Assembly (NCBI GenBank): GCA_964016885.1
Contig: OZ024745.1
Span: forward strand, 53,940,001-54,004,000
Origin: Eledone cirrhosa
Taxonomy: Eukaryota
DNA: 64,000 bases
Direction: 5' to 3'
In this document: positions 8,295 to 59,449 of the stretch, piece after piece
How positions within the stretch are numbered: position 1 is the stretch's first letter
How the letters are laid out: every line of letters begins with the position of its first letter
Position numbers and translations under genes: made by a program
The notes under the pieces: model-generated
What the model was told of the DNA's origin: nothing
The model's database searches: none
Seen by the model: only the letters and a program-made list of their open reading frames with translations

Positions 8295-8660
<366 letters not shown>

Positions 8661-11152: not shown

Positions 11153-11771
11153 TACCAAAAAATATATAATATTTAGTGGATAATGGAATGTAGCCGTGGC
11201 GACTTCTGGTGTCCTTGGCCCTAGGACCACCTCTCTACTCACCACCATCGGCAAAGAGTTCGCTACCTGCATGTGTGAGCCTCGCGCGCTAGAATGGCCC
11301 TTCCAGCGTCTCTCCCTTACCACCCACCGGGGAAAAGCCATAATTTGCTCATAATAGTGAGTGATGGGGAGAGCGGGAGAGATGAAGGCAGTGACAGTCG
11401 GAGTTTGGTTCCATTGTATTCGGACCTGATGTATATGTGTATATTTATTTACTGCACCATTCAGGACCATTTCAGAAATGAAAGGGGTGAAAATTATTGT
11501 ACCTGGAGATTGTAAAATATTAAGAAAAAATTGATTTGGGCTTATTAATCTCAACAGAGAACTCAGTTGTTTTGAAAGAAAAGCTGATATGACTTTATTT
11601 AATATGGGATATAAATATATATAGGTTGAACATAGCGCATTCCGACCGATGTAAACTGATGTATAAAATAACATAGAATGCTTGATGAATACTTAACAAT
11701 AAATTAGGATATTTAGAGCTGAATTCGAAACCTACACTCATATGTATATATGTATTTATATATATATAAGT

Positions 11772-11880
11772 TGGAATAGAATGAAACGAAATTTCATTTC
11801 TCACTCTTAGTACGGCACTTACTTAAATGTAAGTATGTATGTATACGTACATACATATATGTATACAGACGTACAGTAGC

Positions 11881-11961
<81 letters not shown>

Positions 11962-12131
11962 CCGGTACACATATATATATATGTACGTATCAGTTTAGCG
12001 GACGTTTATTATAACGCTCGCTTTGTCCGTTTGTAAACAAACTGACAGCCTGATTTATGCCGTACGGTGTTAAGGCAACCACGTCACCTTTTTGTTCAAC
12101 ACTGACACAGGAACGATGTACTAGTTTCAAG

Positions 12132-12132
<1 letters not shown>
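11772..12132 (-). mobile_element. Retrozyme-like element copy, homologous to the 468-bp repeat unit, starting with the 3' half of a hammerhead
   Basis: Minus strand begins GAAA-CTAG-TA-CATCG (12128-12114). The body aligns with 12895-13148 and with the 468-bp unit. It is flanked and interrupted by (TA)n. Confidence 0.7.
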
Positions 12133-12180
<48 letters not shown>

Positions 12181-12276
12181 ACGGTTAAAATTCCCGAGAT
12201 CCATGGACGAGTTCTCTCCAGCGGTCTCTGTCCCTCATTATCGCTGCCATGTCCTGCGTCTCCAACAGACCAGGAC

Positions 12277-12310
<34 letters not shown>

Positions 12311-12314
<4 letters not shown>

Positions 12315-12546
12315 GACGATATGTTATGTCTTCATTACGTTTATTGAGTAGTGACCTGCGTTTCAATATTTATCAGCTCAAGGTTCGATCTGTATCGATC
12401 TAGCCCGACTCATTACAACAACAGAGTTCCGAAGAGCTTTTGATTCCAGAGTCGGGCTAGATCGATACATATCGAACCTTGAGCTGATCAATCGCGAAAC
12501 GCGTGTCACTACTCAATAAACGTAATAAAGACATAACATGTCCTTT
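12311..12546. repeat. Inverted repeat, ~100-bp arms (12311-12411 / 12449-12546), each with a degenerate hammerhead-like core
   Basis: Arms are reverse complements. Plus arm reads gagCTGATCAatcgcGAAAcgcgtgtcactactcAATAAA; minus arm reads gagCTGATAAatattGAAAcgcaggtcactactcAATAAA. Confidence 0.8.
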
Positions 12547-12749
12547 TTATTATTACACTCTGCTTTGCTCTACACCTCTATACTTACTGGAAACTACGCA
12601 TCGAGTACTCACTCTGGTGAACCTACAGTAACTGGACGTTACAATCCCTAGCTATGTATATATATATATAACGAAGGAAGTGTGGTAAGCAACCAGATGG
12701 ACCATAACGCACCAGAGTACTCAATACATAGCAGAGTATAAATATTTAG

Positions 12750-12860
12750 TATAGAAATGGCTTCTACAGGGCTAGAACTGTTTCATTCGAAGGAAATCAT
12801 CAGGAAAGCCCTGATGATTTCCTTCGAATGAAACAGTTCTAGTCCTGTAGAAGGCATTTC

Positions 12861-12864
<4 letters not shown>
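12750..12864. repeat. Palindrome (55-bp arms, 5-nt spacer) giving two back-to-back hammerhead cores
   Basis: ...gaaatcatcagg aaagc cctgatgatttc... The plus arm has CTGATGA...GAAAcagttctagtcctgTAgaagg but a truncated stem I. Confidence 0.9.
12759..12810 (-). ncRNA. Type I hammerhead ribozyme motif
   Basis: GGCUUUC-CUGAUGA-UUUCCUUCGAAU-GAAA-CAGUUCUAGCCCUG-UA-GAAGCC. The core is intact, stem I is GGCUU(U)C/GAAGCC, stem III is ACAG/CUGU, and the triplet is GUA. Stem II opens with a U-U mismatch. Confidence 0.75.
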
Positions 12865-12894
<30 letters not shown>

Positions 12895-12895
<1 letters not shown>

Positions 12896-13392
12896 AGTAT
12901 GCATGTATACGTACATACATATATGTATACAGACGTACAGTAGCATGCACATATATATATATATATATATATACATACACATATATATACATATGCATAC
13001 AGGTACACATACATATATGCACGTATCAGTTTAGCGGCGCTAACGTCGCTTTGTTCGTTTGTAAACAAACTGAACAGCCTGAATTTATGCCATACGGTGT
13101 TAAGGCAACCACGTCACCTTTTTGTTCAACACTGACACAGGAACGATGTGTCAGTGTTGAACAAAAAGGTGACGTGGTTGCCTTAACACCGTATGGCATA
13201 AATTCAGGCTGTTCAGTTTGTTTACAAACGAACAAAGCGACGTTAGCGCCGCTAAACTGATACGTGCATATATGTATGTGTACCTGTATGCATATGTATA
13301 TATATGTGTATGTATATATATATATATATATATATGTGCATGCTACTGTACGTCTGTATACATATATGTATGTACGTATACATGCATACTTA
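12895..13392. repeat. Near-perfect palindrome, ~245-bp arms, 7-nt loop (GGAACGA, 13140-13146); right arm continues unpaired to ~13445
   Basis: Arms are reverse complements, as shown by mirror-image ORFs 12772-13068(-) and 13218-13403(+). Confidence 0.95.
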
Positions 13393-13451
13393 CATTTAAG
13401 TAAGTGCCATACTAAGAGTGAGAAATGAAATTTCGTTTTCATTTTGTTTTA

Positions 13452-13538
<87 letters not shown>

Positions 13539-15467: not shown

Positions 15468-15996
15468 GGTGTGTATATTTTTTTTATCAGTAAATTAGAT
15501 GAGGCGGTACCAGTGGCTTCTGCAGTCCATCCAAACAACACGATGAATGAAGTGAGTTGATGTAATATGAATGAAGTGAGCGTCTGTCTGTCAGTAACAC
15601 CGCACAAGAAAACATTACAACGTTGTTGTCTGCATGCAGTGAATGAAAACAAGTGATCTTACCTGAGCCCATTTACTGTGAAAAGTAGTACAGTAATTGA
15701 TTAGGATGCTGTGACATTGATTATCGGAATTTAGTGTTGCAAGAAAAAGATAAATATGCATGTAAATAAAATATGTTGTACGTGTCTGTTCCGAATTTAA
15801 TGAATCACTGTTGAAACTGGAATTATATTTCTACCTGGAAACATTGGTTATAACATCTGATAAAGGAAGGGCCTAGTTATCAATGTAGTTCTAGATATAT
15901 GGAAGAAAAAAACGGGATTGTCATGTCTGTAACCCCTTTGATCATAGGACTGATCAACCAGGGCTGAGCTGAACTATACAACAAAACAACAACAAC

Positions 15997-17651
15997 GATA
16001 AGAAAAAGGAGGAAATAGCACAACGGTTACATACAAAGGAAGTGGATAAAGTGATAGCATGGAGTAAAGAAGTTAAACTCCCACTTAACACAGTAAAATG
16101 CGCGTCAACCTTCTTTGGAACATTCAGTGCAGAAGCGAGGTGGCAACCAAATATTACTATTGACGGGTTAAGACTATCTTTTAACCCTAATCCCGTCTTT
16201 TTGGGCGTCACATATGATAGGACACTCTCCTTTGGGGAACATGTAAGATCTGCCAAACACTTCAACAGCGCGCCAACATCCTGCGCACTCTTGGGGGTAC
16301 CTCCTGGGGCTGGCATACCGCAGATCTTCGTCAAGTATACATCGCAGTGCATCACAGCCTGGCCGAGTACGGCTCCCCAGGCTGGGCTCCCTGGTTGTCA
16401 GCCAGTAACATCGGCAAGCTTGAAAGAGCACAACTAGAAGTAGCTCGAGCGATCACTGGACATTTACGCACAACATCAACTGAGGCTGTCCTACTTGAAG
16501 CACACCTTCCACCGTTGGAATGCCGCTTTCATGCTCTCTCGCTCTTGAAAGCGGATGAATGGGCATATCTCCCCACCTCCGATCATCGAAACCAAGTACT
16601 CAATGCTAACGTAAGGCGCCGACTCCGCCGTCTTGATTGGCGATGTAGACAGCTGCCAGCCCTTGATCGTCTTGGCATACCCTCGACAACAGACACCCAA
16701 CTACAACATAAGAAGCCGCCGTGGGAATTACTACCACCAATCCCTGCTACCTTTATCCCAGTGAGCAAATCAATGCCAGTAGCACTACAACTTAAAGCGG
16801 CACTGGATCATCTATCAACACCCCCTCCCCCGGCCGACATTGGCGTGTATACAGATGGATTAACATGCGACAGTACAACCAATGGCGGTGCCGATCTTGT
16901 AATCATCCAAAATGAAGAAGTAGTTCACGAGTGGCACACTCCGACGGGCGCTCGTAGCAGTTCCTTTCATTCCGAAAGAATTGCATTCAAACAAGCCCTC
17001 CTATGGTTACAGGCAGACACCAGCTGGGAGTCCTCCAATGTCGTCTGTGACTGCAAGTCGCTGGTTCAAACAGTGAACAACCCCTTCCCCCATGACCCTT
17101 TTCTTACCGAGCTGCAAGGGATCGCTAACAAAATCACAAAGGGGAGAACCTTAGCAGCTGTCTGGGTCCCGGGGCACTGAAACATCAAAGGGAATGAACT
17201 GGCGGACGCCCAAGCGAATCAAGGCTCAGCATCTACTCAACTGGAAAGTTCAATCGATGCCGCCACCCGACGCGCCATAATTCGCCGGGAATTAAACCCA
17301 CCACCGATCCAGCATCAACGTCTACAATCAGTCTTTATCCGCCACCCAAATGAAGAGAGTGAGCAAACTCTCTCTAAAGCAGATAGGAACCATCTCGTCT
17401 GCTTCCGCAGTGGACATCACACGTCATTAAGAAGATGGCTCTATATGATCGGAAATCAACACATGCCGTCTGTGCGGAGAGGAAAAAAGAATCCTCCGAA
17501 CATCTTTGGATGAGATGTCCGGCCTTGATGGTGGATTGTTATCACCACCATCTCGACTCCAGCATGGATGAACTCGTGCGTCTCCCACACGCCAGTCTAG
17601 CGCTACTGCGGGTAATCCTCAGGCGCCTGCGGTAAGAAAACAAACAAACAA
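15997..17651 (+). mobile_element. 5'-truncated LINE with RT C-terminus, RNase H and a Cys/His finger (I-group, Ingi/Nimb-like); pseudogenised
   Basis: FLGVTYDRTLSFGEHV and LERAQLEVARAITGHLRTTSTEAVLLEAHLPPL (RT thumb). RNase H motifs VYTDG, SSFHSE, VCDCKS and WVPGH*NIKGNELAD. ESSEHLWMRCP finger and an (A/C)-rich tail. Frameshifts and stops present. Candidate TSD ACAAAACAACAACAAC at 15981-15996 and 17652-17667. Confidence 0.85.
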
Positions 17652-22029: not shown

Positions 22030-22870
22030 CCCTTCCCATTAGTTTCCCTCCAATTTACAGGGGAATACTCGGACCATGCTCACAACTCTCCCCATCTTTC
22101 AACGAACTAACTAGAAAGCAGTACTTTCCTCTCCACCCTGATTTTCCTCTTTATGTGAAATCTGAAACAGCTACTCAGGGTTTTACCGTCCTCATTTTGC
22201 TCAGGGAGTTCTCTGAATTTGGATGCAATAGTATCTGCATACCTGGTCCTGATCTCCTTATCAAACAATGCTTCCCACTTTATCCTGGGCCTGCCAGTTT
22301 TGCGGGTTTCTTTGGCTTTAGATAGTCTCAAGTTGCATATAACTAGATGGTGGTCAGTTGACAGCTCAACCCCTCTCTTAAAACGAACTCCCAGCACAGA
22401 ATCGAAGAGATCAATGACAATAACAAAATCAATTATTGATCTCTGTCCTTGATTCCCTTATACCATGTATATTGATGGATGTCTCTATGCTGGGAGGTGT
22501 TTACAATAGAGAGTCCATTGCTATAACAAAGTCTAGTAAGACCTCTCCTGTCACATTTAGATTGGGTTCATCGTTCCTTCCAGTCACTCTTTTTCATGGG
22601 AGTTCGTCAGTGCTAACATGTGCATTGAAGTTTCCCATCAGGACATATAACGCAGTCTTAACTACATCTAATTCTGCAGTCACTTCACCAAGGAAGGATC
22701 TGTATTTCGAATTCTTGTTAGGTGCATAAACTTGCACCACCTACAAAGTCCTATCTTTCAGCCTAAGATTCAAGAGGCAAATCCTCCCATCTAATGGGTC
22801 CCAGTCGATAACACATTCTGACAGCTGGGGGCTTGTGAGTATCCCCTCTCCCATCTGTATACTCATTATG
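22030..22870 (-). mobile_element. RTE-clade LINE fragment: APE endonuclease domain, decayed
   Basis: Minus frame GILTSPQLSECVIDWDPLDGRICLLNLRLKDRTL*VVQVYAPNKNSKY...LMGNFNAHV and, downstream, RGVELSTDHHLVICNLRL...RIKWEAL. Confidence 0.85.
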
Positions 22871-22872
22871 AC

Positions 22873-25800
22873 TATTGTTGTATCTATTGTTGCAGCTGTT
22901 GAATCTATCGTTGCAGCTGTTGTATCTATTGTTGCAGCTGTTGTATCTATTGTTGCAGCTGTTGTATCTATTGTTGCAGCTGTTGTATCTATCGTTGCAG
23001 CTGTTGTATCTATTGTTGCAGCTGTTGTATCTATCGTTGCAGCTGTTGTATCTATTGTTGCAGCTGTTGTATCTATCGTTGCTGCTGCTGTATCTATCGT
23101 TGCTGCTGTTGTGCATATCGTTGTTGCTGTTGTATCTATCGTTGCTGCTGTTGTATCTATCGTTGCTGCTGTTGTATCTATCGTTGCAGCTGTTGTATCT
23201 ATCGTTGCTGCTGCTGTATCTATTGTTGCTGTTGTTGTGCCTATCGTTGCAGCTGTTGTGTCTATCGTTGCAGCTGTTGTATCTACCGTTGCTGCTGTGG
23301 TGCCTATCGTTGCAGCTGTTGTATCTATCGTTGCTGCTGTTTGCCTATCGTTGCTGCTGTTGTATCTATCGTTGCAACTGTTGTATCTATCGTTGCTGCT
23401 GTGGTGCCTATTGTTGCAGCTGTTGTATCTATCGTTGCTGCTGTTGTGCCTATCGTTGCTGCTGTTGTATCTATCGTTGCTGCTGTGTACCTATCGTTGC
23501 TGCTGTTGTGTCTATCGTTGCTGCTCTTGTGCCTATCGTTGCTGCTGTTGTATCTATCGTTGCTGCTGTGGTGCCTATCGTTGCTGCTGTTGTATCTATC
23601 GTTGCCCGCTGTTGTATCTATCGTTGCTGCTGTTGTATCTATCGTTGCTGCTGCTGTGCCTATCGTTGCTGCTGTTGTATCTATCGTTGCTGCTGTTGTA
23701 TCTATCGTTGCTGCTGTTGTGTCTATCGTTGCTGCTGTTGTATCTATCGTTGCTGCTCTTGTACCTATCGTTGCTGCTGATGTGCCTATCGCTGCTGCTG
23801 TTGTATCTATTGTTGCAGCTCTTGTATCTATCGTTGCTGCTGTTGTATCTATCGTTGCTGCTGTTGAATCTATTGTTGCTGTTGTTGTGCCTATCGTTGC
23901 TGCTGTTGTATCTATTGTTGCAGCTGTTGTATCTATCGTTGCTGCTGTTGTATGTATCGTTGCTGCTGTTGTATCTATCGTTGCTGCTGTTGTATCTATC
24001 ATTGCTGCTGTTTTGTACCTATCGTTTCTGCTGTTGTATCTATCGTTGCTGCTGTTGTATCTATCGTTGCTGCTGTTGTATCTATCATTGCTGCTGTTGT
24101 GCCTATCGTTGCTGCTGTTTTGTACCTATCGTTTCTGCTGTTTTATCTATCGTTGCTGCTGTTGTAACTATTGTTGCTGCTGTTGTATCTATCGTTGCTG
24201 CTGTTGAATCTATTGTTGCTGCTTTTGTATCTATCATTGCTGCTGTTGTATCTATTGTTGCAGCTCTTGTATCTATCGTTGCTGCTGTTGTATCTATCGT
24301 TGCTGTTGTTGTATCTATCGTTGCTGCTGTTGTGCCTATCGTTGCTGCTGTTGTATCTATCGTTTCTGCTGTTGTGCATATCGTTGCTGCTGTGTGCCTA
24401 TTGTTGCAGCTGTGGTATCTATTGTTGCAGCTGTTGTATCTATCGTTGCTGCTGTTGTGCCTATCGTTGCTGCTGTTGTATCTATCGTTTCTGCTGTTGT
24501 ATCTATTGTTGCTGTTGTTGTGCCTATCGTTGCTGCTGCTGTATCTATCGTTGCTGCTGTTGTGCATATCGTTGTTGCTGTTGTATCTATCGTTGCTGCT
24601 GTTGTATCTATTGTTGCTGCTGTTGTATCTATCGTTGCAGCTGTTGTATCTATCGTTGCTGCTGCTGTATCTATTGTTGCTGTTGTTGTGCCTATCGTTG
24701 CAGCTGTTGTATCTATTATTGCAGCTGTTGTATCTATCGTTGCTGCTGTTTGCCTATCGTTGCTACTGTTGTATCTATCGTTGCAACTGTTGTATCTATC
24801 GTTGCTGCTGTGGTGCCTATTGTTGCAGCTGTTGTATCTATCGTTGCTGCTGTTGAGCCTATCGTTGCTGCTGTTGTATCTTTCGTTGCTGCTGTGTGCC
24901 TATCGTTGCTGCTGTTGTATCTATCGTTGCTGCTCTTGTATATATCGTTGCTGCTCTTGTGCCTATCGTTGCTGCTGTTGTTTCTATCGTTGCTGCTGTG
25001 GTGCCTATCGTTGCTGCTGTTGTATCTATCGTTGCCCGCTGTTGTATCTATCGTTGCTGCTGTTGTATCTATCGTTGCTGCTGCTGTGCCTATCGTTGCT
25101 GCTGTTGTATCTATCGTTGCTGCTGTTGTATCTATCGTTGCTGCTGCTGTGCCTATCGTTGCAGCTGTTGTATCTATCGTTGCTGCTGTTGTGTCTATCG
25201 TTGCTGCTGTTGTATCTATCGTTTCTGCTGTTGTGCATATCGTTGCTGCTGTGTGCCTATTGTTGCAGCTGTGGTATCTATTGTTGCAGCTGTTGTATCT
25301 ATCGTTGCTGCTGTTGTGCCTATCGTTGCTGCTGTTGTATCTATTGTTGCTGTTGTTGTGCCTATCGTTGCTGCTGCTGTATCTATCGTTGCTGCTGTTG
25401 TGCATATCGTTGTTGCTGTTGTATCTATCGTTGCTGCTGTTGTATCTATTGTTGCTGCTGTTGTATCTATCGTTGCAGCTGTTGTATCTATCGTTGCTGC
25501 TGCTGTATCTATTGTTGCTGTTGTTGTGCCTATCGTTGCAGCTGTTGTATCTATTATTGCAGCTGTTGTATCTATCGTTGCTGCTGTTTGCCTATCGTTG
25601 CTACTGTTGTATCTATCGTTGCAACTGTTGTATCTATCGTTGCTGCTGTGGTGCCTATTGTTGCAGCTGTTGTATCTATCGTTGCTGCTGTTGAGCCTAT
25701 CGTTGCTGCTGTTGTATCTATCGTTGCTGCTGTGTGCCTATCGTTGCTGCTGTTGTATCTATCGTTGCTGCTCTTGTATCTATCGTTGCTGCTCTTGTGC

Positions 25801-28800
25801 CTATCGTTGCTGCTGTTGTTTCTATCGTTGCTGCTGTGGTGCCTATCGTTGCTGCTGTTGTATCTATCGTTGCCCGCTGTTGTATCTATCGTTGCTGCTG
25901 TTGTATCTATCGTTGCTGCTGCTGTGCCTATCGTTGCTGCTGTTGTATCTATCGTTGCTGCTGTTGTATCTATCGTTGCTGCTGTTGTATCTATCGTTGC
26001 AGCTGTTGTATCTATCGTTGCTGCTGCTGTATCTATTGTTGCTGTTGTTGTGCCTATCGTTGCAGCTGTTGTGTCTATCGTTGCAGCTGTTGTATCTACC
26101 GTTGCTGCTGTGGTGCCTATCGTTGCAGCTGTTGTATCTATCGTTGCTGCTGTTTGCCTATCGTTGCTGCTGTTATATCTATCGTTGCAACTGTTGTATC
26201 TATCGTTGCTGCTGTGGTGCCTATTGTTGCAGCTGTTGTATCTATCGTTGCTGCTGTTGTGCCTATCGTTGCTGCTGTTGTATCTATCGTTGCTGCTGTG
26301 TACCTATCGTTGCTGCTGTTGTGTCTATCGTTGCTGCTCTTGTGCCTATCGTTGCTGCTGTTGTATCTATCGTTGCTGCTGTGGTGCCTATCGTTGCTGC
26401 TGTTGTATCTATCGTTGCCCGCTGTTGTATCTATCGTTGCTGCTGTTGTATCTATCGTTGCTGCTGCTGTGCCTATCGTTGCTGCTGTTGTATCTATCGT
26501 TGCTGCTGTTGTATCTATCGTTGCTGCTGTTGTGTCTATCGTTGCTGCTGTTGTATCTATCGTTGCTGCTCTTGTACCTATCGTTGCTGCTGATGTGCCT
26601 ATCGCTGCTGCTGTTGTATCTATTGTTGCAGCTCTTGTATCTATCGTTGCTGCTGTTGTATGTATCGTTGCTGCTGTTGAATCTATTGTTGCTGTTGTTG
26701 TGCCTATCGTTGCTGCTGTTGTATCTATTGTTGCAGCTGTTGTATCTATCGTTGCTGCTGTTGTATGTATCGTTGCTGCTGTTGTATCTATCGTTGCTGC
26801 TGTTGTATCTATCATTGCTGCTGTTTTGTACCTATCGTTTCTGCTGTTGTATCTATCGTTGCTGCTGTTGTATCTATCGTTGCTGCTGTTGTATCTATCA
26901 TTGCTGCTGTTGTGCCTATCGTTGCTGCTGTTTTGTACCTATCGTTTCTGCTGTTTTATCTATCGTTGCTGCTGTTGTAACTATTGTTGCTGCTGTTGTA
27001 TCTATCGTTGCTGCTGTTGAATCTATTGTTGCTGCTTTTGTATCTATCATTGCTGCTGTTGTATCTATTGTTGCAGCTCTTGTATCTATCGTTGCTGCTG
27101 TTGTATCTATCGTTGCTGTTGTTGTATCTATCGTTGCTGCTGTTGTGCCTATCGTTGCTGCTGTTGTATCTATCGTTTCTGCTGTTGTGCATATCGTTGC
27201 TGCTGTGTGCCTATTGTTGCAGCTGTGGTATCTATTGTTGCAGCTGTTGTATCTATCGTTGCTGCTGTTGTGCCTATCGTTGCTGCTGTTGTATCTATCG
27301 TTTCTGCTGTTGTATCTATTGTTGCTGTTGTTGTGCCTATCGTTGCTGCTGCTGTATCTATCGTTGCTGCTGTTGTGCATATCGTTGTTGCTGTTGTATC
27401 TATCGTTGCTGCTGTTGTATCTATTGTTGCTGCTGTTGTATCTATCGTTGCAGCTGTTGTATCTATCGTTGCTGCTGCTGTATCTATTGTTGCTGTTGTT
27501 GTGCCTATCGTTGCAGCTGTTGTATCTATTATTGCAGCTGTTGTATCTATCGTTGCTGCTGTTTGCCTATCGTTGCTACTGTTGTATCTATCGTTGCAAC
27601 TGTTGTATCTATCGTTGCTGCTGTGGTGCCTATTGTTGCAGCTGTTGTATCTATCGTTGCTGCTGTTGAGCCTATCGTTGCTGCTGTTGTATCTATCGTT
27701 GCTGCTGTGTGCCTATCGTTGCTGCTGTTGTATCTATCGTTGCTGCTCTTGTATATATCGTTGCTGCTCTTGTGCCTATCGTTGCTGCTGTTGTTTCTAT
27801 CGTTGCTGCTGTGGTGCCTATCGTTGCTGCTGTTGTATCTATCGTTGCCCGCTGTTGTATCTATCGTTGCTGCTGTTGTATCTATCGTTGCTGCTGCTGT
27901 GCCTATCGTTGCTGCTGTTGTATCTATCGTTGCTGCTGTTGTATCTATCGTTGCTGCTGCTGTGCCTATCGTTGCAGCTGTTGTATCTATCGTTGCTGCT
28001 GTTGTGTCTATCGTTGCTGCTGTTGTATCTATCGTTTCTGCTGTTGTGCATATCGTTGCTGCTGTGTGCCTATTGTTGCAGCTGTGGTATCTATTGTTGC
28101 AGCTGTTGTATCTATCGTTGCTGCTGTTGTGCCTATCGTTGCTGCTGTTGTATCTATTGTTGCTGTTGTTGTGCCTATCGTTGCTGCTGCTGTATCTATC
28201 GTTGCTGCTGTTGTGCATATCGTTGTTGCTGTTGTATCTATCGTTGCTGCTGTTGTATCTATTGTTGCTGCTGTTGTATCTATCGTTGCAGCTGTTGTAT
28301 CTATCGTTGCTGCTGCTGTATCTATTGTTGCTGTTGTTGTGCCTATCGTTGCAGCTGTTGTATCTATTATTGCAGCTGTTGTATCTATCGTTGCTGCTGT
28401 TTGCCTATCGTTGCTACTGTTGTATCTATCGTTGCAACTGTTGTATCTATCGTTGCTGCTGTGGTGCCTATTGTTGCAGCTGTTGTATCTATCGTTGCTG
28501 CTGTTGAGCCTATCGTTGCTGCTGTTGTATCTATCGTTGCTGCTGTGTGCCTATCGTTGCTGCTGTTGTATCTATCGTTGCTGCTCTTGTATCTATCGTT
28601 GCTGCTCTTGTGCCTATCGTTGCTGCTGTTGTTTCTATCGTTGCTGCTGTGGTGCCTATCGTTGCTGCTGTTGTATCTATCGTTGCCCGCTGTTGTATCT
28701 ATCGTTGCTGCTGTTGTATCTATCGTTGCTGCTGCTGTGCCTATCGTTGCTGCTGTTGTATCTATCGTTGCTGCTGTTGTATCTATCGTTGCTGCTGCTG

Positions 28801-29345
28801 TGCCTATCGTTGCAGCTGTTGTATCTATCGTTGCTGCTGTTGTGTCTATCGTTGCTGCTGTTGTATCTATCGTTGCTGCTCTTGTACCTATCGTTGCTGC
28901 TGTTGTATCTATTGTTGCAGCTCTTGTATCTATCGTTGCTGCTGTTGTATCTATCGTTGCTGCTGTTGTATCTATCGTTGCTGCTGTTGAATCTATTGTT
29001 GCTGTTGTTGTGCCTATCGTTGCTGCTGTTGTATCTATTGTTGCAGCTGTTGTATCTATCGTTGCTGCTGTTGTATGTATCGTTGCTGCTGTTGTATCTA
29101 TCGTTGCTGCTGTTGTATCTATCATTGCTGCTGTTGTATCTATCGTTGCTGCTGTTGTGTCTATTGTTGCTGCTGTTGTGCCTATCGTTGCTGCTGTTGT
29201 ATCTATCGTTGCTGCTGTTGTACCTATCGTTGCTGCTCTTGTGCCTATCGTTGCAGCTGTTGTATCAACCATTGCAGCTGTTGTATCTATCGTTGCTGCT
29301 GTTGTACCTATCGTTGCTGCTGTTGTGCCTATCGTTGCGGCTCTC
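22873..29345. repeat. 21-bp minisatellite (consensus TGTTGTATCTATCGTTGCTGC), ~6.5 kb, with 2813-bp and 838-bp higher-order periods
   Basis: Direct reading. Matching ORFs recur at offsets of 2813 (23325/26138, 24171/26984, 24394/27207) and 838 (24896/25734, 27709/28547). Confidence 0.97.
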
Positions 29346-31049
29346 GTTACTGTTCATCTTGTGTTGGTTTCGATTGGGTAGTGATACTAAGTTTATGAAG
29401 ATGACAGCATTTACAACTCCAGACGGGTTTATTCCAACCACTTTTCCATTGTCCATTAGCATTTCGATTTATTACGTGTCAATGTAGGGGGAGGTGCATA
29501 CAATTTTTGTGTCTGTGTGCCTCCTCTTTGGTGATATTTTACACCAAGAGGTTTCCAAACGTTTTTCAAGCACAATTGTGCCTGAGCCTGATTTCGATTG
29601 TCATTTTTAAAAATTATAACATTTGTATGATATTAAGCTTATTGTCTCCCTGATTTGACAGTTGTTTAGTTTAGCTGGCGCTGTTGCGACAAGAAAATCA
29701 AATCTTTAGCGACACATTAAAGTTATTTACTTGTAAATAGGAACGCGCTTTTGTTATTGTTGATTCAGTAGCTCTATGATCAAAATCGTTCCAGCAATGA
29801 CCACTCTACATTTTTTCAAGTACGATGTACATCATCCAAAGTGACTTAAACATCTATTTTATGATGGTATAGTACGATTTAAAGGGAATTTGGCAATTAT
29901 TTCTAGCCGATCATGTGACCATCATTTGACTGTTATTGTAGTTGTTTTTGTTGTTTAGGAACCTGGTTAACTCTGATAGAACAAACTCATGATGAATGGT
30001 ACTCCATCCGTGTCGATCTCAGCTCTGGGTATCTTTCTGTTTTAAGAAGGCAGAGTGAGTTGAGGAAATTTGGTTGTCCTTTGTTCCAGATGAAACGATC
30101 ACGTAGTGGTTATTAATAGCTGTGTACAATAAATTGACCTTCAAGAAACTAATGCATTTTCTAGGCTTATCACTACATTTCGATTGCTTATTTTTTCGGC
30201 AAGGTATGATTATTACAGACTTACAATTAATCATTAAAAAAAAATGACTACATTTGTGTTATATAAGAAGCAATAAAAGACATGTGGACGCACAATATGT
30301 ATCTTTACCACACGCAAAAGAGATTTACGTCTTTCGCACCAGGTGGATTTTTTTTCTGACAAACGTTTATAAAATTACGTAACAAACCTATGAATCATTA
30401 ATTTGATATGAGAACAGATATACATAATTTAGTTTTAAAATTATATTTGTAGGAAAACCCATAAAAACATGGTTTGAGTCTGACAAAAGAATTCTGCAAT
30501 TTCGACTGACTTAGGTCTTGTTCAGCTTCGGTGCAGTAATTAGTTTGCACGTTCCTGACAGCATTGAGGCTAAATGAGATCCAGGAAGGTCGGAAATGGA
30601 ATATTTTCGTTGTCGTAGTCGTGTGTTCTCTCTAGGAGTTATAACACAACAGGTACTTTATGGCAAGAACAATTACATATTTCTATATGAAATTAATCTT
30701 ATCATATCTCCATCTTTTGCGTATATATTAGAATATTTAGCAACAAGACACAGTACAAGTGAGGGAGTAGCAGTGATGTTACACCTCAATTTGTACCTTA
30801 TTTCAAAAAATGAATTTAAAGATGCGAATATTTGGGCGAATATTTTAAATATAGAAACGAACAAAGACTAAGTTACCGTCTGCTTGACCTTCCGGAGCGA
30901 GTATGAAATGAAAGGATAAGCCGAAATAACACGTGAACCCCAGTACATGGAGAGGCGCAGCACAAAGGTAACTGCTAGAGGCAAAGCTGATGATATCGGA
31001 ACCTGGAAAAATTGTATTTCTATGGGTACGCCCTCGTGTCAAAAAAAAG

Positions 31050-35621: not shown

Positions 35622-35675
<54 letters not shown>

Positions 35676-35782
35676 ATAATAATAAATTTGAAGACTAAAA
35701 TCCAAAGAGGGCTCGAAAAGGATAACTATATATCAAATATATAAGAACCGTTGAGCAAATATTTATTAAAATAACAGATTAA

Positions 35783-35833
35783 AGTTTAAGCAAAGAATCG
35801 CTGCTTTCACTCTTAACGGGATCTTCTGAAACT
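35783..35833 (-). ncRNA. Hammerhead-like motif at the 3' end of the PLE (mirror copy at 40258-40308 on plus)
   Basis: AGUUU-CAGAAGA-UCCCGUUAAG(A/G)GU-GAAA-GCAGCGAUUCUUUGC-UU-AAACU, followed by AAUAAA. Stem I and stem III pair, but the core has CAGA in place of CUGA in both arms. Confidence 0.5.
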
Positions 35834-36790
35834 AACAAAGTCAATCTGTAAACGCAGAAGTGGATATTTAAAAACACGTTGCAACCGGAGGAAGACAGGA
35901 AAACGATACTTTGGTTCGTGGAAACGTTCCCTGGCAAAGAACGGGAAAAAACGAATATAATACGTCATGAATAGGAGCGGTGAAAAACAATTACACGCAA
36001 AGACAGAACCACGTTTATGGTATAAAAGAAGTCGTAGACTAATGTTCTCTTAGGTGGTTCATAGAGACGTTCTCTGGCAATGAACGGAAAAAACGAAGAT
36101 AATACGTCATATGTGGAGCGTAGAGAACAATTGCACGCAAAGACAAAACCACGTAAATGGTATAGCTGAAGTCGTAGACTAAAATTCTAACTAGGAAACC
36201 GAAAGAATCTCCGCTTCAGAGTTAAGAATAAAGTAAATAAAATACAATACCGAGGTAATAGAAATTAAATAAATACATACACGCATGCAAATACGTACGT
36301 ACACAAGCATACGCGAAAACACTTGCCATAGGTATACAAAACCACGGACATTTAAATATGTGTCTGTGTGTGTGCGTGTATAAAAATAAATAAATAAATA
36401 AATAAACGTATATAAATAAACGTATATAAATAAATAAATACGTATATAACAAGCGCACACACATACCTACATGTAAATACAAAAATGTTCGGATACGTAC
36501 GTCAACCAAAACATGAAGTACACATAAACACACACCCTACATACATACGAACCTGCATACTCATACGAACGCAAAACTCCCGTATACACATAACCAAACC
36601 ATATGTACTAGAATATATAAAAATTATACGCCGTAACATATACAATCAAATATACGTACGAGAAAGTATACGTACCTTCATAAAATATACAGGTAATATA
36701 TACTTACCTATGCAAATAAGTAATGGTATAAACATAACATATACTTAGCTACCACATCAAGACGTAAAATATCCACGTATAGATCGTACT

Positions 36791-38700
36791 ATCCGTTAGG
36801 GTATAATGTGGGGCTGTAATACAGGAATGTTGTGTGCAATTTATGTTTACAAGCCGAAATTGCCTCAGATTTTTTGTTTAAGATGTGGTCTGTGGAGTAG
36901 AGTATTTCCAGGGCCTCAGCGGCGCAGGGGTCACATGGTCTTTATTTCCGTTATACGATCTAGCCCTAGCTAGGATCTCCCAGTGTAACTTATATTGGGT
37001 GTGGTTGTCTTTTAGACTCCAGATATAAGCTGAAAGTGACGTCATATTCCTTCTTAGAGGGTAACGAAAAGAATGGGTATGCATGTAAAGACGCTGCTTG
37101 AATCTATTGGCGGTTAACCCTATGTAGGCCCTACGGGACGTGGGTGTTTCAACCTTACATTTGTAGACAATGTTACTAGAGAGGCATTTCCCGGATAGGG
37201 GGTAATCAACCCGATTCCTACAATTACAGTTAGTACTAACTACATGGTTGCACGTGTTCCTACAGCTAGGTAGTTTAGCTAAATTTGAAGGTGTGATGTT
37301 AGGAGTCGTAGAGTAAGAAATTTTAATAGTATTTCTATTAAAAATTTTACTATATTTATGTGTAGGGGAAAATGCTTCGTAATAAGGGAAAGAAAGATCT
37401 TAGCTAATGGTGTAGCCACCTCCATATTATAGGGTGGGTTATACCAACAAATGCGACGGGATCTATTTCTTCTAGGTCTATTTTCGTACTCTGTATATGC
37501 TACCTTATCGACAAATCCACTCCGAGCGAGAGCTTCATTGTAATAAGTGGAATGGTCGTTGAAAATATGCTCGTTAGTAGATAGACGGGAAAGCCTCAAC
37601 GAAACGTTTCTTACCAGGTTCTTGGTTATGCTGGCAGGATGGTTGGAATGCTTACTTATGTAATTAAGCGTATCATTCGGCTTTCTCTACGGGTAATACA
37701 ACCCATTCGATAAATCGAGGGTAACGTCGAGGTAATTAACGACCGAGAGATTGGCCTCAACCTGTATAGAGAGGTTGAAGCCTTTAAAGAAGGCTGTGAG
37801 TTCTTTTCTGAACCTGTCGCAAGCGCGAGGTCCGCACTTAGTCATGGTCAAAAGACCATCATCACGGTACAAACCACCGCCCGCGTTGGGGAATTCGTCT
37901 TTGATAGAGAAAAGAAGGAAAAGGCCAATAAGATCAGTAACCTCCGCAGAATCGCTGGCGCCCATACTCACGTCGAATGGGGTACTATTGGATTTTTTAA
38001 TCCAAATAGAGTCGTCGAAATTAATCACCGACTTACGGGCATTGAGGATGACATCAACTTCGAAATCCTTAACCACTGTGAGTGTTTTAGCGAAATTTAT
38101 AGCTCTAAGGAGAAGTGGTAAAGTGATGGAGGAGTAGTAATTGTTGATGTCGAATTGGATAAAACGGCAATGTTCCTTGTTGCATATGCCGTTGAACCAA
38201 TCAATCACCACGAAAGAATTGTTCCACAGTGCAAGAGGGGCCAAACTTCTAATTTCAGGTATAATTCTATCAAGAATCCTTTTACTAAGTCTACCTAAAT
38301 CGGACTTCGTAGGGTTAATAAGCCGAATAGAGGGGTTGTTCGGAAAATTGGATTTGTGATCCTTCAGGGTAAAGTGGGGAGAGATAGGGTCCAGAGGTTC
38401 GGTCCGGTCCAGGATGTTGAGATCAGAGGTGATTTTAAACCCAGCATCGTTGATTTCATTGATGACGCACCGATTAGTTTTACGGTAATCCTTAGTTACA
38501 GCATTATGTAGTAGTTGATGGTAAGTACTGAGCTCCACTTGATATAGGTTGCCAGTTTTGTCGGAATGGACGTGCACGGCATTAGAATCCTTAATAGAAC
38601 GAATTCTATTCTTCAGGTCCTGCTGGAAGGAATTGCTCCTATTCCGAAATTTGATACTCCGTATGAGTTCCAAGACATCATTTTCGAATGGTAGCAATGC
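36791..38700 (-). pseudogene. Penelope-like RT plus C-terminal GIY-YIG endonuclease ORF, disrupted
   Basis: RT motifs IRLINPTKSDLG, IQFDINNYYSSI, FDVSMGASDSAEV and GLYRDDGL, then YLDVTLDL and WYNPPYN. An in-frame TAG at 37687-37689 (YYP*RKPNDT), a frameshift near 37365 (KHFP/THKYSKIFNRNT) and another in the EN domain disrupt it. Confidence 0.9.
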
Positions 38701-38784
38701 AATAAATATAGTAAATATAGTAAATATAGTAAATATAATAAATATAGTAAATATAGTAACATTTTTAATAGAAATACTATTAAA

Positions 38785-39330
38785 ATGACTTACTCTACGA
38801 CTCCTAACCTTGCACATAACATCACAGCTTCAAATTTAGCTAAACTACCTAGCCGTAGGAACACGTGCAGCCCTGTAGTTAGTACTAACTGTAATTGTAG
38901 GAATCGGGTTGATTGCCCCCTATCCGGGAAATGCCTCTCTCGTAACATTGTCTACAAATGTAAGGTTGAAACACCCACGTACCGTAGGGCCTACATAGGG
39001 TTAACCGCCAATAGATTCAAGCAGCGTCTTTACATGCATACCCATTCTTTTCGTTACCCTCTAAGAAGGAATATGACGTCACTTTCAGCTTATATCTGGA
39101 GTCTAAAAGACAACCACACCCAATATAAGTTACACTGGGAGACCCTAGCTAGGGCTAGATCGTATAACGGAAATAAAAGACCATGTGACCTCTGCGTCGC
39201 TGACACCCTGGAAATACTCTACGCAACAGACCACATCTTAAACAAAAAATGTGAGGCAATTTCAGCTTGTAAACATAAATTGCACAAAACTTTCCTGTAT
39301 TACAGCCCCACATTTTACCCTAACGGATAG
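38785..39330 (+). pseudogene. Open GIY-YIG endonuclease segment in the inverted arm (partial copy of the PLE ORF 3' end)
   Basis: CNCRNRVDCPLSGKC linker, NIVYKC...YIGLT...FKQRLYMH, CDLC, LNKKCE...CKH. The ATG is probably incidental, since the other arm reads ATT at that codon. Confidence 0.85.
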
Positions 39331-41029
39331 TACGAAGTATACGTGGATATTTTACGTCTTGATGTGGTAGCTAAGTATATGTTATGTTTATACCATTACT
39401 TATTTGCATAGGTAAGTATATATTACCTGTATGTTTTATGAAGGTACGTATACTTTCTCGTACGTATATTTGATTGTATATGTTATGGCGTATAATTTTT
39501 ATATATTCTGGTACATATGGTTTGGTTATGTGTATACGGGAGTTTTGCGTCCGTGTGAGTATGCAGGTTCGTACGTATGTAGGGTGTGTGTATATGTGTA
39601 CTTCATGTTTTGGTTGACGTACGTATCCGAACATTTGTGTATTTACATGTAGGTATGTGTGTGCGCTTGTTATATACGTATTTATTTATATACGTTTATT
39701 TATTTATTTATTTGTATACACGCACACACACATATTTATATGTGCGTGGTTTTGTATACCTATGGCAAGTGTTTTCGCGTATGCTTGTGTACGTACGTAT
39801 TTGCATGCGTGTATGTATTTATTTAATTTCTATTACCTCGGTATTGTATTTTATTTACTTTATTCTTAACCCTGAAGCGGAGATTCTTTCGGTTTCCTAG
39901 TTAGAATTTTAGTCTACGACTTCAGCTATACCATTTACGTGGTTTTGTCTTTGCGTGCAATTGTTCCCCACGCTCCACATATGACGTATTATTTTCGTTT
40001 TTTCCGTTCATTGCCAGATAACGTCTCTTTGAACCACCTAAGAGAACATTAGTCTACGACTTCTTTTATACCATAAACGTGGTTCTGTCTTTGCGTGTAA
40101 TTGTTTTTCACCGCTCCTATTAATGACGTATTATATTCGTTTTTTCCCGTTCTTTGCCAGGGAACGTTTCCGCGAACCAAAGTATCGTTTTCCTGTCTTC
40201 CTCCGGTTGCAACGTTTTTTGAAATCTTCACTTCTGCGTTTACAGATTGACTTTGTTAGCTTCAGAAGATCCCGTTAAGGGTGAAAGCGGCGATTCCTTG
40301 CTTAAACTTTAATCTGTTATTTTAATATATATATATATAGCTGGAATTGTGAGTTGATCGTTTTTTATTTATTCTATCGTCTCAGTATACCTTCGCTATT
40401 CTGTTTTTATTTTTCGAATGGTTGAGATCTAATGCCAATTTATTTTGAAATATATCTCATTTAAGTTAAAATTTTTATGGAAGATTTTCACTCTCCTATA
40501 TTTGTTCTTACGATTTAGTTTCTTGTTCTCAACATTTGAGTGAAATAATAGTAAATGTGTTTTGTTAACGTGTTTTGCATTTGGGTGTAAAGAAGTATTG
40601 AAATATTGTTATAATTAATAACAATGTCACCCCTGGATTGTGAATTGTCTAGCGGTTAAATCCTGGAAAGATTTTAGTTTATTTCCCGTATGCTGTATCA
40701 GCTTTTCTAGATGATAAATCTATAAAACATTTCGATGACAAACTGCAAAACATATTCAGGCATGAATGCAATAAAAAGAAATATGAATACATTAACTTAC
40801 TGAAAAAGCATTTTAAACTGACTCTACAGGATCTAGAAAACAACGATAAAAAATGTAAAATATTATGCAAAAGCGATAAAAGTAACCGATTTTAAATTAC
40901 GAACAAAGATTAATACGTTTCAAAAACAACATAAATTCGTTAAAATTAATAAAGGGCACAACTAAAAATTAAATTTAGTAAATGAATTAATTAAGGCAAG
41001 AAAATTTATGAATTAAGAAAACGCTCAGT

Positions 41030-57780: not shown

Positions 57781-58014
57781 TATATATATACAATTAAGTT
57801 AAAGATGTACATCCATATATGTATACTGAAATACTAGTATGTATATGAATACACACACGTATACATATGTAGATGTACCAAGTTTTTTTCACTGGTCACT
57901 TTACTGTGAGTGGCCAGCTATTCTGTATGTAAGCACACAGACAAACCGGTTTTTAGAGTCATACTGGTTTTTGAGGAAACACCTTTCCTCTATTCTCCAG
58001 AAAGCCAGACAAGG

Positions 58015-58059
58015 AATATTGAACTAGTTTCGTTGTTGTTACAACTCATCAGCAATATT
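58015..58059 (-). ncRNA. Minimal type I hammerhead ribozyme, copy 1
   Basis: AAUAUUG-CUGAUGA-GUUGU(AACA)ACAAC-GAAA-CUAG-UU-CAAUAUU. It has a perfect 7-bp stem I, a 5-bp stem II, an intact core and a palindromic AACUAGUU stem III. Predicted cut after GUU, between 58022 and 58021. Confidence 0.9.
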
Positions 58060-58482
58060 TACCTATCTTCCGGCCTCTCTAGAGAATCGTAAAAGCACAT
58101 ATCGTTATATGCTTTTTCTATGATAATTAGTAGTGGGCAGACTAATTTGCATAGAGTGTGAGTAAGTACCGGTTCAACGGAGACGATAAAAACAAATAAC
58201 GAAACGAAATTAAATTTCGTTTCGTTTGTAACTCACTTTTGTATGACTGACGCTTAAACAATTAAGTTAAAGATGTACATCCATATATGTATACTGAAAT
58301 ACTAGTATGTATATGAATACACACACGTATACATATGTAGATGTATCAAGTTTTTTTCACTGGTCACTTTACTGTGAGTGGCCAGCTATTCTGTATGTAA
58401 GCACACAGACAAACCGGTTTTTAGAGTCATACTGGTTTTTGAGGAAACACCTTTCCTCTATTCTCCAGAAAGCCAGACAAGG

Positions 58483-58527
58483 AATATTGAACTAGTTTCG
58501 TTGTTGTTACAACTCATCAGCAATATT
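58483..58527 (-). ncRNA. Minimal type I hammerhead ribozyme, copy 2
   Basis: Identical to 58015-58059, offset 468. Confidence 0.9.
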
Positions 58528-58950
58528 TACCTATCTTCCGGCCTCTCTAGAGAATCGTAAAAGCACATATCGTTATATGCTTTTTCTATGATAATTAGTA
58601 GTGGGCAGACTAATTTGCATAGAGTGTGAGTAAGTACCGGTTCAACGGAGACGATAAAAACAAATAACGAAACGAAATTAAATTTCGTTTCGTTTGTAAC
58701 TCACTTTTGTATGACTGACGCTTAAACAATTAAGTTAAAGATGTACATCCATATATGTATACTGAAATACTAGTATGTATATGAATACACACACGTATAC
58801 ATATGTAGATGTACCAAGTTTTTTTCACTGGTCACTTTACTGTGAGTGGCCAGCTATTCTGTATGTAAGCACACAGACAAACCGGTTTTTAGAGTCATAC
58901 TGGTTTTTGAGGAAACACCTTTCCTCTATTCTCCAGAAAGCCAGACAAGG

Positions 58951-58995
58951 AATATTGAACTAGTTTCGTTGTTGTTACAACTCATCAGCAATATT
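58951..58995 (-). ncRNA. Minimal type I hammerhead ribozyme, copy 3
   Basis: Identical to 58015-58059, offset 936. Confidence 0.9.
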
Positions 58996-59449
58996 TACCT
59001 ATCTTCCGGCCTTTCTAGAGAATCGTAAAAGCACATATCGTTATATGCTTTTTCTATGATAATTAGTAGTGGGCAGACTAATTTGCATAGAGTGTGAGTA
59101 AGTACCGGTTCAACGGAGACGATAAAAACAAATAACGAAACGAAATTAAATTTCGTTTCGTTTGTAACTCACTTTTGTATGACTGACGCTTAAACAATTA
59201 AGTTAAAGATGTACATCCATATATGTATACTGAAATACTAGTATGTATATGAATACACACACGTATACATATGTAGATGTACCAAGTTTTTTTCACTGGT
59301 CACTTTACTGTGAGTGGCCAGCTATTCTGTATGTAAGCACACAGACAAACCGGTTTTTAGAGTCATACTGGTTTTTGAGGAAACACCTTTCCTCTATTTT
59401 TCAAATAAATCTTTGAAGAATTAAATCACCGTGATAAACAATCTATCAA

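Follow-up and report, generated by a model that had tools for sequence, protein, structure and literature searches.

The window we analysed, a 64-kb stretch of the Eledone cirrhosa genome (64,000 nucleotides; assembly GCA_964016885.1, contig OZ024745.1, positions 53,940,001 to 54,004,000, forward strand), contains members of two families of short repeats, A and B, each with a predicted hammerhead ribozyme, and a broken protein-coding Penelope-like element. The principal features are given below, with element positions counted from the predicted hammerhead cut (-1/+1) and with E1 and E2 denoting the long and the short 3' end of the element.

11766-12133, minus strand: plain family A retrozyme copy, truncated at its 5' end; it spans -15 to E1 (the tail end), with (TA)n on either side
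12113-12128, minus strand: 3' half of a type I hammerhead, comprising GAAA, palindromic helix III, UA and the 3' strand of helix I
12894-13149, minus strand: left, loop-bearing arm of the palindrome, which spans the element from -1/+1 to E2, followed by (TA)n
13137-13149: junction with 3-nt microhomology ACA/TGT, joining -1 to +3 of one arm to +10 to +12 of the other
13140-13146, no strand: unpaired 7-nt apex, element +3 to +9
13147-13454, plus strand: right arm, which begins at element +10 and ends at E1, where (TA)n follows
13393-13454, plus strand: tail, on the right arm only, about 60 nt with two predicted hairpins
35673-40327, minus strand: broken protein-coding Penelope-like element and its inverted copy (1.6 kb, head to head, 94% identical)
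57787-59398, minus strand: family B array of 3.4 tandem 468-nt units with a homologous hammerhead, our replicate family

The repeat unit is 420-480 nt long (422-479 nt measured) with a GC content of 0.35-0.38, holds an internal (TA)n hairpin and often stands in tandem, in arrays of at least six units. It is non-coding, with no protein-like long frame and no reading frame for a reverse transcriptase (RT) or GIY-YIG domain in the unit. There are at least 15,000 copies, and 14,976 exact matches to one subfamily anchor were found in the 3.0 Gb of genome searched; within the window a further fragment of family A, from its 3' part and 90% identical, lies at 8327-8440. On the minus strand the plain copy reads GAAA-CUAG-UA/CAUCG, with the predicted cut between 12119 and 12118, and it ends at -15, without the CUGANGA half of the ribozyme. 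The original prediction of a hammerhead from this half motif gains support from the rest of the family, which cannot be said to lack CUGANGA because CTGATGA or CTGACGA is present in 137 of the 146 distinct copies scored; the full ribozyme (core, helices I-III and NUH) was found in tandem units of other copies. Helix I is paired at 6/6 positions in 158 of 179 distinct copies of the two families, and its compensating forms, within and between families, are ACGGTG/CATCGT (85 copies), ACGTTG/CAGCGT (28) and ATATTG/CAATAT (32); with bulges, the helix reaches to about +25 (z -2.5). In family B the cut is predicted to fall after GUU or GUC, and the array in the window ends at the short site E2 within (TA)n. 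From motif and covariation we predict that the RNA of the element cleaves itself, and the sequence identifies the element as a non-LTR retrozyme whose inverted insertions into (TA)n are of the Penelope type. An Rfam search of the whole 64-kb window at gathering thresholds matched no family.

The palindrome consists of exact reverse complements of 246 nt each (12894-13139 and 13147-13392) around the 7-nt loop, 499 nt in total, in good agreement with the palindrome of about 490 bp originally described. Its turn coincides with the predicted hammerhead cut site, as had also been proposed: the minus-strand arm starts at -1/+1, matching the element sequence as far as +1, and is joined to +10 of the opposite arm via ACA/TGT, which is the microhomology of 2-3 nt that had been noticed there. 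One base at the turn is ambiguous, as recognised from the outset, because ACA (13137-13139) pairs with TGT (13147-13149). The arms and loop were thus described correctly; what had been overlooked is that the right arm continues for about 60 nt (13393-13454) with no counterpart in the left arm before it meets (TA)n. Identity between the arms and the plain copy (11766-12133) is about 85%. The palindrome represents a non-coding hammerhead retrozyme inserted head to head in (TA)n; there are hundreds of such insertions, and as a single locus it is ordinary.

The coding Penelope-like element in the same window has an RT-like frame at 37687-38829 (minus strand), a GIY-YIG-like motif near 37120 and a tail of about 90 nt on one arm only; a motif scan of it found no hammerhead core. 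Pfam and PDB sequence searches did not recognise it, and Atlas look-alikes to RT, HTH_animal and DUF8422 at 0.93-0.97 are a lead only. A 107-nt hairpin at 12754-12860 (about 1,700 genome candidates) carries CTGATGA...GAAAC on both strands; it was considered as a third replicate family and rejected, as its fixed apex, the same in all of 12 copies and with a 5-nt loop in either orientation, marks it as a different kind of element, MITE-like in character. Between (TA)n runs at 12307-12553 lies an older palindrome of 247 nt belonging to a third family, with arms 82-87% identical, a 37-nt loop and a degenerate hammerhead-like motif. Elsewhere in the window are broken RT/RNase H-like frames of a LINE-type element (15973-17180; weak Pfam matches to RVT_3 and RNase_H) and a tandem array of short period (22730-29490), which has a strong strand bias and a higher-order repeat of about 2.8 kb.

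Palindrome patterns were searched genome-wide in overlapping sets, giving 38, 37, 67, 58 and 49 matches for family A and 18, 36 and 20 for family B, with 0 or 1 match for reversed-pattern controls. We examined the junctions of all members of the family A sets of 38, 37 and 49 and 50 of the 58, and of all members of the family B sets of 18 and 36 and 15 of the 20, leaving out the 67 upstream family A palindromes. Apart from the family B set of 20 these represent 205 distinct junctions (162 in A, 43 in B). Inversions were found throughout the ribozyme region, and the cut is the commonest single apex across the two families, with a start compatible with +1 in 24 of the 205 (14/87, 2/31, 3/44, 5/18 and 0/25 by set, the 14/87 being those of the first family A anchor). 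Four of the junctions in the family B set of 18 start exactly at +1, and in the fifth that is compatible with the cut helix III forms the centre of a perfect palindrome. The exact junction of the window recurs, being found at four loci on three contigs and once more with one mismatch. Because the flanks of the cut-class loci have only scattered other repeats in common and several subfamilies are represented, these loci are independent insertions. The expectation that inversion points would not be randomly placed was correct, the same apex recurring at unrelated loci, and the Penelope-like context that had been suggested is evident in the head-to-head 5'-truncated copies, the one-sided tail and the (TA)n targets. 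Palindromes near the cut make up less than 1% of anchor matches (37 vs 14,976), which speaks against an origin by cleavage. Loops range from 0 to more than 40 nt, with those of 30-40 nt common and the effect of loop length weak, and 34 of the 205 junctions contain untemplated or extra bases. Five loci (L207, L212, L215, L290 and L141) carry short, reiterated repeats from slippage a little inside the cut, at +8 to +13, possibly the product of polymerase stutter near a template end or stall.

Alignment places the outer ends of the arms at E2 and E1, two fixed sites separated by about 50-65 nt in family A and about 70 nt in family B. Among the 162 family A palindromes, 53 have one arm of each kind (E1/E2), one is E1/E1 and none is E2/E2, the remaining 108 having one arm that is longer, shorter or without an assigned end; among the 43 of family B the corresponding numbers are 26, 1 and 0, the rest running on, being shorter or having no assigned end. 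Together the families provide 79 mixed pairs, which occur in both orientations, vs 2 that are alike. Less clean results came from a cruder classifier based on motifs, with 38 mixed, one E1/E1 and 10 E2/E2 for family A and no call for 31 of 43 in family B; it scores E2 whenever one motif fails, and at least one of its 10 E2/E2 cases, L039, visibly has E1. At clean looped junctions the loop-bearing arm is E1 in 19 cases in A and 6 in B, and E2 in 13 and 7, respectively; in the window it is the short (E2) arm that bears the loop and the opposite arm that is tailed (E1). The loop lies on the tail arm in 10 of 13 cut-class junctions vs 31 of 58 elsewhere (Fisher p = 0.21), so that cut-class junctions of this kind are a possible distinct run-off class. 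Arms of the same palindrome differ by a median of 2%, other copies by 14%. In nearly all of the 43 pairs listed (TA)n follows both ends, and because the target is itself (TA)n, target-site duplications are unreadable. At one locus, L033 (G000:C1:153416657-153419691), the inverted arm is nearer to the second tandem unit of the other arm than to the adjacent first unit, a likeness that hints at a multimeric template.

We consider it likely that the palindrome arose when a Penelope-like enzyme nicked both strands of the target and two cDNAs, begun from two fixed sites on the RNA, were joined at a 3-base microhomology. The enzyme, presumably Penelope-like, would have nicked both strands of (TA)n; cDNA synthesis would then have been primed by one strand at E1 and by its partner at E2; each cDNA would have extended toward the ribozyme; and the 3' ends of the two would have annealed at the microhomology and been filled in. 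That the arm lengths are reversed means that two cDNAs are needed. The position of the apex at the cut is most likely due to the ACA/TGT match there together with a tendency of cDNAs to end within the long helix I. A one-sided tail is also present on the coding Penelope-like element in the window; against the model, this element shares only low-complexity sequence with family A, and the high likeness of the arms also fits the copying of one arm from the other.

Is the cut site special beyond its microhomology? We fitted a Poisson model across all possible junction classes to 158 events, having dropped the window's own junction, the 34 junctions with extra bases, the downstream-anchor junctions within the range of the first anchor and five parses at or beyond -44. 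Microhomology of 1, 2 and 3 nt multiplies the junction rate 4-fold, 15-fold and 65-fold. Over this model the cut is enriched 1.96-fold (1.22-3.17, p = 0.01), falling to 1.47-fold (0.86-2.52) with a term for CA-type matches and to 0.97 when CA-type classes are removed; with the CA/TG match at the cut taken into account, the excess there is thus not significant. In our first model (58 family A junctions) +1 showed a 4.2-fold spike, which was discarded, as it fell to 0.98 with an ACA term and was replaced by the 1.96 and 1.47 of the joint model with its better exposure weights. The matched controls in the two families disagree on whether the cut is special: in family A an ACA match at -18 attracts junctions as strongly as the one at the cut (3 events for an exposure of 0.78 vs 10 for 1.28) and ACA at the cut with its partner at +18 has 0 events, whereas in family B 4 events fall on the 3-nt match at the cut vs 0 on two upstream 4-nt ACAA matches with the same partner site. 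A step describes the data better than a spike, with junction ends at or 3' of +1 being 4.3-fold denser than those upstream (LR 37.8). Its best position is +3 (LR 43.5; joint 38-44), the two families taken separately peak between +1 and +4 (LR 28 and 11-16), and the step survives a quadratic trend (LR 19.9); the maximum under a simulated null was 8.5 in 25 runs. Junctions are dense from +1 to about +20. With the family B set of 20 added, upstream density is 0.34 (0.15-0.79) of the downstream baseline, and that of family B at +1 to +21 is 2.4-fold (1.2-4.9) above it. The end of the shorter arm is not enriched at +1 (RR 1.27).

Did cleavage of the RNA create this zone? Of the two cDNAs, the loop-bearing one may have run off the 5' end of a hammerhead-cleaved RNA and been trimmed to a microhomology, in which case both the zone from +1 to +20 and the apexes at +1 would be fossils of cleavage in vivo. 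That the cut is the commonest single start in both families, that its match outdid the ACAA controls in family B, that the step peaks at +1 to +4 in each family far above its null maximum and that family B is enriched just inside the cut all agree with such an origin, which we nevertheless regard as a tentative possibility rather than a probable one. The ACA controls of family A run counter to it, no spike is left at the cut after the step fit (RR 0.87), and there is a second bump in family A at -32 to -25 (15 observed vs 7.7 expected). None of 26 distinct loci with simple truncations into (TA)n, scored by eye among the matches listed, starts at +1, whereas three start at -5. All 25 sampled copies, from few independent arrays, read through the cut; as read-through is the rule, lost templates cannot account for the low upstream density, which must reflect local rates of stopping. 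Moreover, insertion in vitro did not require ribozyme cleavage (PMC11167929). Since the 3' strand of helix I begins exactly at the cut, a polymerase stalling at the helix would leave the same zone as one running off cleaved RNA, and the two are inseparable on these data. That the cDNA in the window itself ended on the 5' end of a ribozyme-cleaved RNA is, in our estimation, conceivable yet doubtful.

The original prediction went further, having a single cDNA reach the cleaved 5' end, fold back and prime its own second strand. The geometry of the junction would suit a fold-back of 2-3 bp with a 7-nt loop, the arms are identical, cut-class junctions lean to a loop on the tail arm as noted, and self-priming is the origin proposed for apex palindromes in PMC3846280. 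However, a self-primed second strand cannot outrun the start of the first, and in the window the supposed second strand, reaching E1, exceeds the supposed first strand, which ends at E2, by about 60 nt. This reversal of lengths, with the loop-bearing arm stopping at the fixed site E2, characterises 20 clean junctions in all (13 in A and 7 in B, the window's palindrome included), and folding back provides no reason for the stop of the second arm at a fixed site or for the common loops of 30-40 nt. For the palindrome of the window it is contradicted unless the left arm later lost exactly the tail, and we judge it very unlikely. Hardly more probable, and if anything slightly less so, is an origin in DNA after insertion, by fold-back or template switching during the mending of a break in a plain copy, with gene conversion keeping the arms alike. 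Microhomology and short templated inserts are typical of end-joining repair, compatible with the 34 junctions that have untemplated or extra bases, and the arms are near-identical, but they stop at the element's own E1 and E2 rather than running into flanking DNA, and random breaks would not respect these sites. That the structure is a chimeric long read or an assembly artefact is scarcely credible. No short-read contig bridging the apex was found among the 22 of 810 pieces listed (four runs), an uninformative result; the junction recurs on three contigs, the unequal arms end at biological landmarks and the flanks are unrelated, whereas fold-back of a read would have mirrored the flank too.

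Joining of two cDNAs, the reading we prefer, has a parallel in the twin priming of LINE-1, in which two target-strand primers and a microhomology joint lead to an inversion. In LINE-1 the second primer anneals internally and the arms do not overlap, whereas here both primers would start near the same end and the arms overlap fully to form a palindrome. Related, too, are the endonuclease-bearing Penelope-like elements (Penelope/Poseidon and Neptune), which, according to PMC8557442, PMC3846280 and PMC11167929, share an inverted 5'-truncated copy adjoining the 5' end, a tail at only one end, AT-rich or (TA)n targets and two fixed internal 3' ends with a hammerhead upstream. The element described here differs in having no RT or GIY-YIG frame and a tail of about 50-70 nt vs 30-40. 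Inversion with 5' truncation, a tail that is often confined to one end and insertion into (TA)n are already on record for such elements (PMC8557442). PMC11167929 reports a Penelope-like protein that, in vitro, nicked and extended each of the two strands and began at two sites bounding the tail, in agreement with our reading; against it, the same study saw no difference between the strands in where synthesis began. How the inverted copies and tails form, and what the hammerhead does, are stated to be open questions in PMC8557442 and PMC11167929.

As PMC7229834 and bioRxiv 10.64898/2026.07.22.740005 describe them, the non-LTR retrozymes of animals resemble our element in consisting of non-coding, low-GC units in tandem, each with a single type I hammerhead, in their palindromic helix III and in a genomic occurrence as monomers and multimers; the U-U at the base of helix II is shared with one axolotl family. 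A palindromic helix III of the dimer type is described in PMC4209133. Differences are the internal (TA)n hairpin and, relative to what those accounts say of retrozymes, the frequent head-to-head inversions and the tail. A derivation of non-LTR retrozymes from Penelope-like elements is put forward in the same preprint (bioRxiv 10.64898/2026.07.22.740005). Within the main texts of open-access papers we found none that maps inversion junctions to a hammerhead cut or counts paired start sites.

We conclude that neither the element nor its architecture is of a new kind, and that the paired start sites and the density step are modest, testable additions. The rule of one start site per arm favours two primers over self-priming, and the thousands of short non-coding copies constitute a natural data set for the question of how Penelope-like elements form their inversions and tails. 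The change in junction density at the cut makes a direct prediction for an experiment with a dead ribozyme. Head-to-head retrozyme insertions may, and we offer this tentatively, record the in vivo mechanism of Penelope-like elements, with the two target strands priming at different sites of the pair that flanks the tail, a minority of templates cleaved by the hammerhead and junctions from their run-off ends piling up just inside the cut. If true, this would be genomic evidence that the ribozyme fires on the RNAs used for transposition.
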